Assembly: GCF_056712565.1 (NCBI RefSeq)
Contig: NZ_JBWXXM010000002.1
Source: a plasmid
Strand: one strand, 5' to 3'
Length of the DNA: 64,000 bases
The position numbers and the translations under genes are program-made. Positions within the stretch are counted from its first letter, which is position 1; each line of letters opens with the position of its first letter. Shown here piece by piece: positions 12,207 to 13,289 of the stretch. Under the pieces are notes generated by a model, which searched no databases, was not told the DNA's origin, and worked only from the letters and a program-made list of their open reading frames with translations.

Positions 12207-13289
12207 ATGCGTAAGAGTTATACATTTGGTATTCCATTTGGACTCCAGCGAGAATCAGGACTCTTTTTAGATATTACAGAGGTCAGCCGGGGTATTGACT
12301 GTAACTGCATCTGCCCCGCTTGCAAAACTGATCTGTTAGCAAAGCAGGGGGAGGTCAAGCTTTGGCATTTCTCACACAGTACAGCTGTAGCCGGTGACTG
12401 TGATGGTCTGATGGAAGCCATCCGGGGAAAGATTATTGAAGTCATCAACGAGCACCAGGTTCTTGGTTTCCCAAATCTTCTCGCTGGCGACGATGGTGGG
12501 CCGGTTTCACTGAATGAGGTTAGTGGAAGCGGCAGTATGTTCGGAGGCACAGCTGATCTGTTCGTAAAGGTTAATGATTTATGTGTGGCCGTCTTTCTGG
12601 ACAGGGATCGCAGCATTTCAGAGAAGTTAACCTTTGACCATCTTCATCCTTCCGAAAGAGTTGCCGCATTGCGTATCGATCTTCCTGATATTGAATATGA
12701 AATCAGTCAGGTGCAGCTCGGGCGACGTAAAACAACATACAGTGAGTGCATTGAAAGCCTGATCATTGATGAGACCAGTTCCCGGGAATGGCTATATCAT
12801 CCATTAATGCATGAACTTGAATCTGAACCTCTTCAGGAGTATCGGGGACGGGAGCCTTCAGAGGAAGGGCCTCTTCTTCAGCGCCTTGCTGACTGTAAGA
12901 TGAAATTGCCTGATATCCTTCCGGGCAGTCATAACGCGCTAGTCAGGTTACAGCAGGATACGATTGTATGTCTGTGTCGGTTAACGGTTCGGGCTTATGA
13001 CATCGCTCAGACCGATGAATTTCCTTTGTTCCTTCGCTATTTCAGGTTGCACTGCCTGGAAAACAGCGAACATGTCAGTTACGAAAGACTGATCTGCTGG
13101 CAGGAAATGATTTCAAAAACCCAGGAAGGCCAGTCCTTGACACAAAACGAACTTGAATATCTTCATGAGATTGTCCGCATCGCCTTTTACAATCACCGGC
13201 TTAACAATGTCAGTATTTCAGATGTTAAAAACCATGACACTGGAAAGAAGAGCGGCAGGGTAGAGTCACAAAATTATTCACTTTTATAA
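12207..13289 (+). CDS. CoiA-like nuclease-domain protein
   Basis: CICPACKTDLLAKQGEVKLWHFSH matches CoiA family signature C-P-x-C...G......HF(A/S)H; first ATG at 12207 (ORF track start 12177 is TTG). Confidence 0.5.
   Translation: MRKSYTFGIPFGLQRESGLFLDITEVSRGIDCNCICPACKTDLLAKQGEVKLWHFSHSTAVAGDCDGLMEAIRGKIIEVINEHQVLGFPNLLAGDDGGPVSLNEVSGSGSMFGGTADLFVKVNDLCVAVFLDRDRSISEKLTFDHLHPSERVAALRIDLPDIEYEISQVQLGRRKTTYSECIESLIIDETSSREWLYHPLMHELESEPLQEYRGREPSEEGPLLQRLADCKMKLPDILPGSHNALVRLQQDTIVCLCRLTVRAYDIAQTDEFPLFLRYFRLHCLENSEHVSYERLICWQEMISKTQEGQSLTQNELEYLHEIVRIAFYNHRLNNVSISDVKNHDTGKKSGRVESQNYSLL

Follow-up and report, generated by a model that had tools for sequence, protein, structure and literature searches.

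The 64,000-nucleotide stretch of plasmid DNA analysed here (contig NZ_JBWXXM010000002.1 of assembly GCF_056712565.1, hereafter the window) is IncHI2 plasmid backbone, collinear with the Salmonella plasmid pD90-1 at 99.98-99.99% identity except for one 1196-bp insertion. We focused on a plus-strand gene whose product an initial annotation, made from the letters alone, had called a CoiA-like nuclease-domain protein next to a TerY-P operon. The open reading frame (ORF) exists as described, and exactly matches a coding sequence in pD90-1 that RefSeq names 'hypothetical protein'; although a TTG at 12177 would lengthen it, every homologue begins MRKSY, so we took the downstream ATG as its start. Upstream lie, in order, tus on the plus strand, two small ORFs, a tyrosine recombinase gene on the minus strand, an hha/ymoA-family gene on the plus strand and a 361-bp spacer; downstream, and convergent with the CoiA-like gene, come genes for a TerY-P kinase, PP2C, TerY-C, a vWA protein, TerD and a second vWA protein (Table 1). 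A megablast search with positions 11500-13900 found 989 plasmids, from Klebsiella, Escherichia, Enterobacter and Salmonella, that reached at least 80% query coverage, the majority of them at 99% identity or above. We place this 'hypothetical protein' in the CoiA superfamily, as a protein that carries a nuclease fold, is not a PF06054 member and is probably not a working CoiA-type nuclease.

Zinc finger, fold and homology to CoiA

The N-terminal signature that had suggested CoiA, C-x-C-x-C-P-x-C...W-H-F-S-H, is present (C32, C34, C36, P37, C39, H54, H57 and C65), and its CoiA-type character is borne out by a match to Pfam family PF25164 (CoiA_N) at residues 33-59 (E=6.3e-8; 32.5 bits against a curated cut-off of 26.3). 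Among 85 relatives C36-x2-C39...H54-x2-H57, together with C32, C34 and C65, is invariant or nearly so, as are IPFG (9-12), P37, the longer W-H-F-x-H (53-57), P89, D117, W195 and H198-P199. CoiA_N is the sole Pfam family found: neither PF06054, the CoiA nuclease model, nor PF25166 (CoiA_C) matched the protein even at E<=10. The initial annotation had tied its assignment to a CoiA or nuclease profile match, naming PF06054; the first of these exists, in CoiA_N, and the second does not. Searches of the protein against NCBIfam, PHROGs and PDB sequence profiles gave nothing meaningful and no phage-family match, and PADLOC-DB 2.0 returned one weak CorA-like match only, in the helical tail (E=0.0022).

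An AlphaFold2 model built with the family alignment had a mean predicted local distance difference test score (pLDDT) of 89.6 over the full length; residues 1-215 reached a pLDDT of 93.6 and a predicted template modelling score of 0.91. The modelled chain begins with a zinc-finger beta unit (1-60) and continues through the 67-83 helix and a beta-meander to a hairpin of beta2 (114-122, bulged at D117) and beta3 (125-132), which a strand (152-158), further helices and a strand (193-197) follow; C-terminal to a partly disordered linker it ends in a helical bundle (242-343). The central domain is thus predicted to adopt a restriction-endonuclease-like fold with an alpha-beta-beta-beta-alpha-beta core, the outcome that the initial annotation had proposed to look for by structure prediction.

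For comparison we assembled eight genuine CoiA proteins, from Listeria, S. aureus, two Enterococcus species, Cytobacillus, Pontibacillus, Paenibacillus and B. velezensis, whose genes we took from records labelled as plasmids. Word-indexed protein searches that started from a B. subtilis CoiA N-terminus yielded fragments only. All eight match PF06054 (E=1e-18 to 6e-36) and CoiA_N (two of them below the Pfam CoiA_N cut-off), and three of the eight, from S. aureus and Enterococcus, are encoded at the canonical mecA-coiA-pepF locus. In Listeria numbering their invariant residues are C33, C36, G45, F52 and H54 in the finger, E67, H71 and K75 on alpha1, E92 on beta1, D103 on beta2 and E113-x-Q115-x-S117 on beta3, followed by R127, W140 and L142.

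Alignment of profiles with hhalign linked the 85-sequence superfamily to the eight CoiA proteins over 141 columns running from the finger through the nuclease domain (95.8%, E=8e-9), with a score that came largely from the finger and alpha1; once the finger was removed the score of the superfamily fell to P=0.008, in the same register. Direct comparison of the central domain of the target family, that is, the CoiA-like protein and its close homologues, with the CoiA nuclease domain was undetectable (0.2%). Subfamily A of the relatives bridges the two: with the zinc finger removed, the target family aligned with it (98.4%, E=6e-15), as with subfamily B (99.5%, E=4e-23), and subfamily A aligned with the CoiA nuclease domain (62.8%, E=7e-5) with the E-H-K/E/D/E residues in register. 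The homology, which rests on this bridge and on the full-length comparison, is transitive but coherent: by profile comparison the central domain and the nuclease domain of CoiA are remotely homologous.

CoiA (YjbF; PF25164, PF06054 and PF25166), the competence D-loop resolvase of Bacillota, offers the closest frame of description: it has an N-terminal C2H2-type zinc finger that the CoiA-like protein matches, and the same domain order of finger, restriction-endonuclease-fold domain and C-terminal extension. The two differ in that the CoiA-like protein has additional invariant cysteines (C32 and C34), a C-terminal domain of its own, and matches to neither PF06054 nor PF25166; CoiA is basic and encoded at a chromosomal locus of Bacillota, whereas the CoiA-like protein is acidic and plasmid-borne in Enterobacterales. 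YraN (UPF0102), the ComM-associated D-loop nuclease of diderm bacteria, differs further, as a chromosomal housekeeping protein with a canonical active site and no zinc finger, and we detected no sequence relationship between it and the CoiA-like protein.

Erosion of the active site and shift in charge

CoiA has an atypical PD-EXQ active site (PMC1189080). In S. pneumoniae it is a single-stranded DNA endonuclease that resolves the transformation D-loop with RadA, and the substitutions D95A (beta2) and E105A (beta3) each abolish transformation (bioRxiv 10.1101/2024.02.06.579203). The CoiA-like protein has a phenylalanine (F130) in place of that essential beta3 glutamate. More broadly, CoiA residues E67, H71, K75, E92, D103, E113, Q115 and S117 align with M69, R73, I77, S108, D117, F130, D132 and D134, which leaves D117 as the only retained member of the PD-EXQ constellation (E, H and K on alpha1, E on beta1, D on beta2 and E-x-Q on beta3); its 13-residue spacing to beta3 is that of B. 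subtilis CoiA. Read at the canonical PD-(D/E)xK positions the sequence is D117...F130-L-D132, with D132 at the Q position.

Across the superfamily, subfamily A keeps all six sites as E-H-K-E-D-E (complete in 14 of the 19 sequences assigned), and subfamily B, the largest group, keeps about three of six as [YF]-R-[RK]-[ED]-D-[YF]. Nine of the eleven members of the target family read M-R-I-S-D-F and keep one; the relatives P0010 and P0013 (P and L numbers denote the proteins and loci that we compared) have lost D117 as well and keep none. P0013, which is 44% identical to the CoiA-like protein over the full length, also lacks D134 and D158. M69, I77 and F130 are conserved hydrophobics on the alpha1/beta3 face that would form the catalytic cleft.

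A shift in charge accompanies these replacements. The isoelectric point (pI) of genuine CoiA proteins is 7.95-9.4 and that of most subfamily A and B members 8.1-9.1, against 5.1-5.7 in the target family; the CoiA-like protein itself has a pI of 5.2 and a net charge of -17, of which -12 falls in the nuclease-like domain. From the replaced active-site residues and the acidic shift we infer that CoiA-type catalysis and general DNA affinity have been lost, and that the protein no longer cuts DNA as CoiA does. The 'nuclease-domain protein' of the initial annotation thus stands as to fold and CoiA homology, while its nuclease chemistry was probably overstated.

Relatives, plasmid backbone and upstream region

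The close family is small, at 12 clusters with 51-99% identity. An exhaustive phmmer search of 1.84 billion representatives returned 2369 proteins at E<=1e-3 and 181 at E<=1e-10, many of them proteins of about 300 amino acids that align over residues 9 to about 210. CoiA_N was found in 49 of 49 relatives tested, and PF06054 in none of the 49 (E<=0.01) and in none of 10 (E<=1); DUF7828 and DUF7830 matches of relatives overlap the same zinc finger, and for some relatives NCBI or UniRef gives the name 'competence protein CoiA family protein'. These uncharacterised proteobacterial CoiA_N proteins share with the CoiA-like protein the finger, P89, D117, W195 and H198-P199, and align with its family at 98-99.7% in hhalign. 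Many of them end in Zn_ribbon_11, where the CoiA-like protein ends instead in its helical domain, and most are basic, unlike the acidic CoiA-like protein; their contexts are defence islands. A literature search by accession, CoiA_N and DUF names found no paper or experiment on the protein or the domain family in the library searched, and a paper on R27 makes no mention of the gene.

Relatives with known or candidate defence genes as neighbours lie at loci L012, L014/L015, L007/L008 and L009-L011. P0097, on an Accumulibacter contig (L012), has an intact catalytic set and follows genes matching LmuB (E=2e-203) and PD-T7-1 (E=1e-182); genes for TIR and DruA proteins are close by. The catalytic set is partly degenerate in P0164 and in P0029, whose gene comes 25 bp after those for a ResIII helicase and an LmuB-like ATPase. 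In P0013 it is fully degenerate, and 18 bp separate the P0013 gene from upstream genes for an AAA_16 NTPase and for a DUF6933 protein that matches the defence candidate PDC-S63 (E=1e-42). Another distant relative lies beside HigB and an SNF2-PLD protein. Four relatives themselves matched no PADLOC model, although their neighbours match LmuB, PD-T7-1 and PDC-S63; CoiA_N proteins beside defence genes may be uncatalogued defence effectors.

Within plasmids, tblastn found the CoiA-like protein in 2810, of which 2495 had at least 80% coverage. By identity, 1124 of the 2810 stood at 95% or more (IncHI2), 291 at 60-80% (IncHI1-like) and 1389 below 60% (mostly Klebsiella). An hha gene is kept upstream in all IncHI-type relatives examined, down to 32-34% identity, on the same strand as the CoiA-like gene, which does not stand alone as the initial annotation had it. 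The arrangement tus ... recombinase - hha - CoiA-like gene recurs in L002/L003 (58% identity), in L004 (62%) and in the Klebsiella IncFIB/IncHI1B plasmids L006 and L019 (32-34%), the last two with an 85-bp gap after hha. In an IncHI1-like plasmid (L018, RCS78_p; 73% identity), which we take to be R27-like, IS1-RepFIA-IS1 splits the pair.

Two insertions mark this block in relatives. The L018 composite, IS1-RepE(FIA)-IS1 at 1482-4591, sits exactly between hha and the CoiA-like homologue, leaving them about 3.8 kb apart and both undisrupted. In the Klebsiella plasmid P_KP4482023_1 (L006) a group II intron with an ltrA reverse transcriptase/maturase gene occupies 4661-6148, between the tyrosine recombinase gene and hha, with the hha-CoiA-like pair intact; L019 lacks this intron.

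Downstream of the gene the neighbours differ each time: they are ter genes in IncHI2 only, Klebsiella plasmids have a RepB gene there, and the other relatives have small unknown ORFs. The convergence with the TerY-P operon is real, the kinase stop codon lying 166 bp away, but two other ter loci that we examined for conservation of the neighbourhood lack the gene: the E. coli O104:H4 chromosomal ter island (98.9% identical) has insertion-sequence remnants beyond the kinase, and in pGMI17-003_1, whose ter locus is 87% identical, genes for DsbA and a thioredoxin take that place. Because the downstream genes vary among relatives and both of these loci lack the gene, we regard the adjacency as incidental, and the link to TerY-P in the title of the initial annotation falls away. 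The kinase gene is moreover interrupted in the window by an IS5 copy, which is the 1196 bp absent from pD90-1; with the kinase split, the TerY-P triad is probably non-functional in this plasmid. The CoiA-like gene is intact.

Table 1 Features of the CoiA-like gene and its surroundings, in window coordinates.
Feature	Position	Strand	Remarks
tus	8109-9071	+	
Tyrosine recombinase gene	10288-11463	-	Divergent from hha; part of the conserved tus...recombinase-hha-CoiA-like gene block
hha/ymoA-family gene	11634-11846	+	Conserved upstream same-strand neighbour of the CoiA-like gene; syntenic context and possible partner
hha-to-gene spacer	11847-12206	+	32-35% GC; palindrome AAAAGTTACTTTA at 12036-12048; -10-like TATAGT at 12171-12176
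CoiA-like protein, coding sequence	12207-13289	+	ATG start, 360 amino acids plus stop codon; RefSeq WP_001232449.1; 100% identical in many IncHI2 plasmids
CoiA_N-type zinc finger, residues 1-66	12207-12404	+	PF25164; small beta-strands modelled at pLDDT ~90-97
Degenerate PD-(D/E)xK (restriction-endonuclease-like) domain, residues 67-205	12405-12821	+	Predicted alpha1 67-83; beta2 114-122 (D117); beta3 125-132 (F130, D132); beta4 152-158
Linker, residues 206-240	12822-12926	+	Conserved motif Y-x-G-R-E/Q-P-x-E-x-G-P-L-x-Q-R; pLDDT <50 at 216-219
Family-specific helical C-terminal domain, residues 241-345	12927-13241	+	Highly conserved core IAQTDEFPLFLRYFRLHC (266-283); no Pfam family; not CoiA_C
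TerY-P kinase gene, two ORFs split by IS5	13456-13806 and 14941-16209	-	Stop at 13456
IS5 copy	13792-14987		Transposase ORF 13860-14840 (+); 4-bp target duplication TTAG at 13788-13791 and 14988-14991
AAAAGTnACTTTT 13-mer copies	827, 4398, 8591, 12036, 15846, 27705, 32298, 62972		Further core copies at 43970 and 57114

The 'AT-rich DNA' of the initial annotation describes the spacer after hha and not the gene body, which has a GC content of 46-50%. This spacer is 85 bp in the Klebsiella plasmids and 164-190 bp in L002 and L004, and among divergent relatives it is poorly conserved except for two elements: a -10-like box, GATATA(C/G)T, about 30-40 nucleotides before the ATG, and a palindrome, AAAAGTnACTTTT, 120-170 bp upstream of the gene. 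The latter is the 'motif copy at 12037' of the initial annotation, here resolved as a 13-bp palindrome.

With at most one mismatch AAAAGTnACTTTT occurs in 8 copies in the window, against 0.26 expected, and its exact 11-nucleotide core in 9, against about 0.08 expected; the copies lie partly between and partly inside genes. In L002, L004, L005 and L018 the core recurs upstream of the CoiA-like gene, and five divergent IncHI-like plasmids carry it within tus; it was absent from the non-IncHI loci examined except L016/L017 and L030. We rejected AAAAGTnACTTTT as a motif specific to the CoiA-like gene; it is plasmid-wide, and also present in L030, and for its plasmid-wide spread we treat it as a separate feature. 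It resembles the multi-copy operator or parS-like sites of global plasmid regulators, such as IncP KorB, and may regulate the CoiA-like gene among others.

A scan found no strong intrinsic terminator and no strong promoter above shuffled expectation. Since no convincing terminator separates the two genes, read-through from hha into the CoiA-like gene is possible. No Rfam family was found in 11400-13900 and no convincing small ORF in the spacer. By eye we noticed a perfect GC-rich hairpin that the scan had not called, GCCCC-TTTC-GGGGC at 11903-11916, 57 bp past the hha stop codon and with no plus-strand T-run; it is possibly a weak or bidirectional terminator or an RNA-stability element. The 166-bp convergent spacer before the kinase gene holds a 13-nucleotide inverted repeat (13363-13375 and 13419-13431; 92% complementary, with a 43-nucleotide loop) and, at 13297-13316, a terminator-like hairpin on the minus strand.

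Proposed role, alternatives and implications

On balance, we favour the view that the CoiA-like protein, with its zinc finger, is a binding protein of the IncHI backbone that has no catalytic activity, is inherited along with hha and may share its regulation. It would be a core protein of IncHI-type plasmids, descended from CoiA-type nucleases and built of three parts: the zinc finger shared with CoiA, a restriction-endonuclease-fold domain homologous to that of CoiA, and a helical C-terminal domain specific to the family. With its active-site residues replaced, largely by conserved hydrophobics, and the protein turned acidic, it would probably serve as a binding module that engages a partner protein or a DNA structure through finger and fold. 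The gene, with its own AT-rich upstream region, would belong to a tus-recombinase-hha maintenance or 'stealth' block, and would have no functional tie to the ter operon to which it is adjacent in IncHI2 only. PD-(D/E)xK pseudo-nucleases provide a precedent, as they keep the fold and lose the catalytic carboxylates and lysine, which implies binding rather than cleavage; the likeness lies in fold and lost residues, and no specific pseudo-nuclease family that has been described matches the CoiA-like protein. Homology, fold class, loss of catalytic residues, charge shift and synteny are results of the analysis; catalytic inactivity, binding and any cooperation with Hha are what we deduce from them.

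Several observations weigh against this view. The nine closest homologues all keep D132, D134, R135 and D158, and D117 together with D132 (at the K/Q position of beta3), D134, D158 and E78 could make up a metal site at a new place; active sites in the restriction-endonuclease-like fold are well known to migrate. An acidic pI is ordinary for cytoplasmic proteins, and P0097, of subfamily A, is acidic too. The two closest non-IncHI homologues, P0013 and P0162, lack an hha neighbour, so the linkage to hha may reflect inheritance of the backbone without any obligate partnership; P0162 is encoded in an element that bears an integrase, and a 63-residue protein encoded upstream of it has, by eye, no evident likeness to Hha.

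With some of these residues as a remodelled site, the protein could instead be a nuclease that is still active and structure-specific. Like CoiA, it would act on single-stranded DNA or D-loop-like intermediates, for example when the plasmid recombines, when it becomes established after conjugation, or in processing around tus and the recombinase gene. We consider this unlikely. The fold and D117 are kept in nine of eleven family members, D132 would by canonical PD-(D/E)xK geometry (beta3 i+2) point into the active site, the neighbours include tus and a tyrosine recombinase, and the site of CoiA is itself atypical; yet five of six CoiA-invariant residues are replaced, three by hydrophobics, one of them being the beta3 glutamate essential in CoiA, the domain is strongly negative, and P0013 and P0010 have dispensed with D117, the former with D134 and D158 besides.

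A role in defence or anti-defence seems to us rather improbable. Here the protein would either serve a plasmid-borne immunity system, so far unrecognised, as its sensor or adaptor, or be a catalytically dead decoy against CoiA-like effectors of the host that aids plasmid establishment. It is acidic and probably inactive, as decoys are, and it has relatives in defence islands (P0097 and P0029, with P0013 the closest non-IncHI homologue); however, neither it nor these relatives match a PADLOC model, the window holds no counterpart of the partner genes of distant homologues (DUF6933/PDC-S63, AAA_16, the 367-residue protein of L016 and others), its IncHI neighbours tus, recombinase and hha are housekeeping genes, and no phage family matched. 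The defence or DNA-processing role that the initial annotation called plausible is so for the wider superfamily, which has intact members beside LmuB, PD-T7-1 and PDC-S63, and is a possibility for this gene. That the gene works within the TerY-P/ter stress system, as its convergence with the kinase gene in IncHI2 might suggest, is largely refuted and most improbable: IncHI1, IncHI1B/FIB and other relatives (L002-L004) have no ter genes downstream, further ter loci do without the gene, and the gene is intact where the kinase is destroyed.

An extension of the favoured view, of a binding protein carried by the IncHI backbone, is a long shot: the CoiA-derived pseudo-nuclease may be an accessory of the IncHI nucleoid-silencing and maintenance module that binds Hha/H-NS or a DNA feature, for example AAAAGTnACTTTT upstream of its own gene and inside tus. 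Were this true, it would control silencing, establishment or evasion of host defence in more than 2,800 sequenced resistance and virulence plasmids, and CoiA-like proteins would form a large proteobacterial superfamily borne on mobile elements, with active branches in defence islands and inactivated ones in plasmid backbones.

As carriers of mcr, carbapenemase and virulence genes, IncHI2, IncHI1 and Klebsiella IncHI1B/FIB plasmids are of major importance, yet much of their backbone lacks annotation. Placement in the CoiA superfamily, with an eroded catalytic signature, makes one of their ubiquitous 'hypothetical proteins' testable, for binding to DNA or a partner, for effects on stability, conjugation or silencing with Hha, and for defence or anti-defence, and a link to the tellurite/TerY-P system that was misleading is gone. 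CoiA-like proteins are confined to Bacillota, as a recent study based on a PF06054 search reportedly concluded; our searches indicate that CoiA-like zinc-finger/nuclease proteins are not so confined, with about 2,400 cluster representatives missed by PF06054, many of which have an intact CoiA-like site and a defence-island location.

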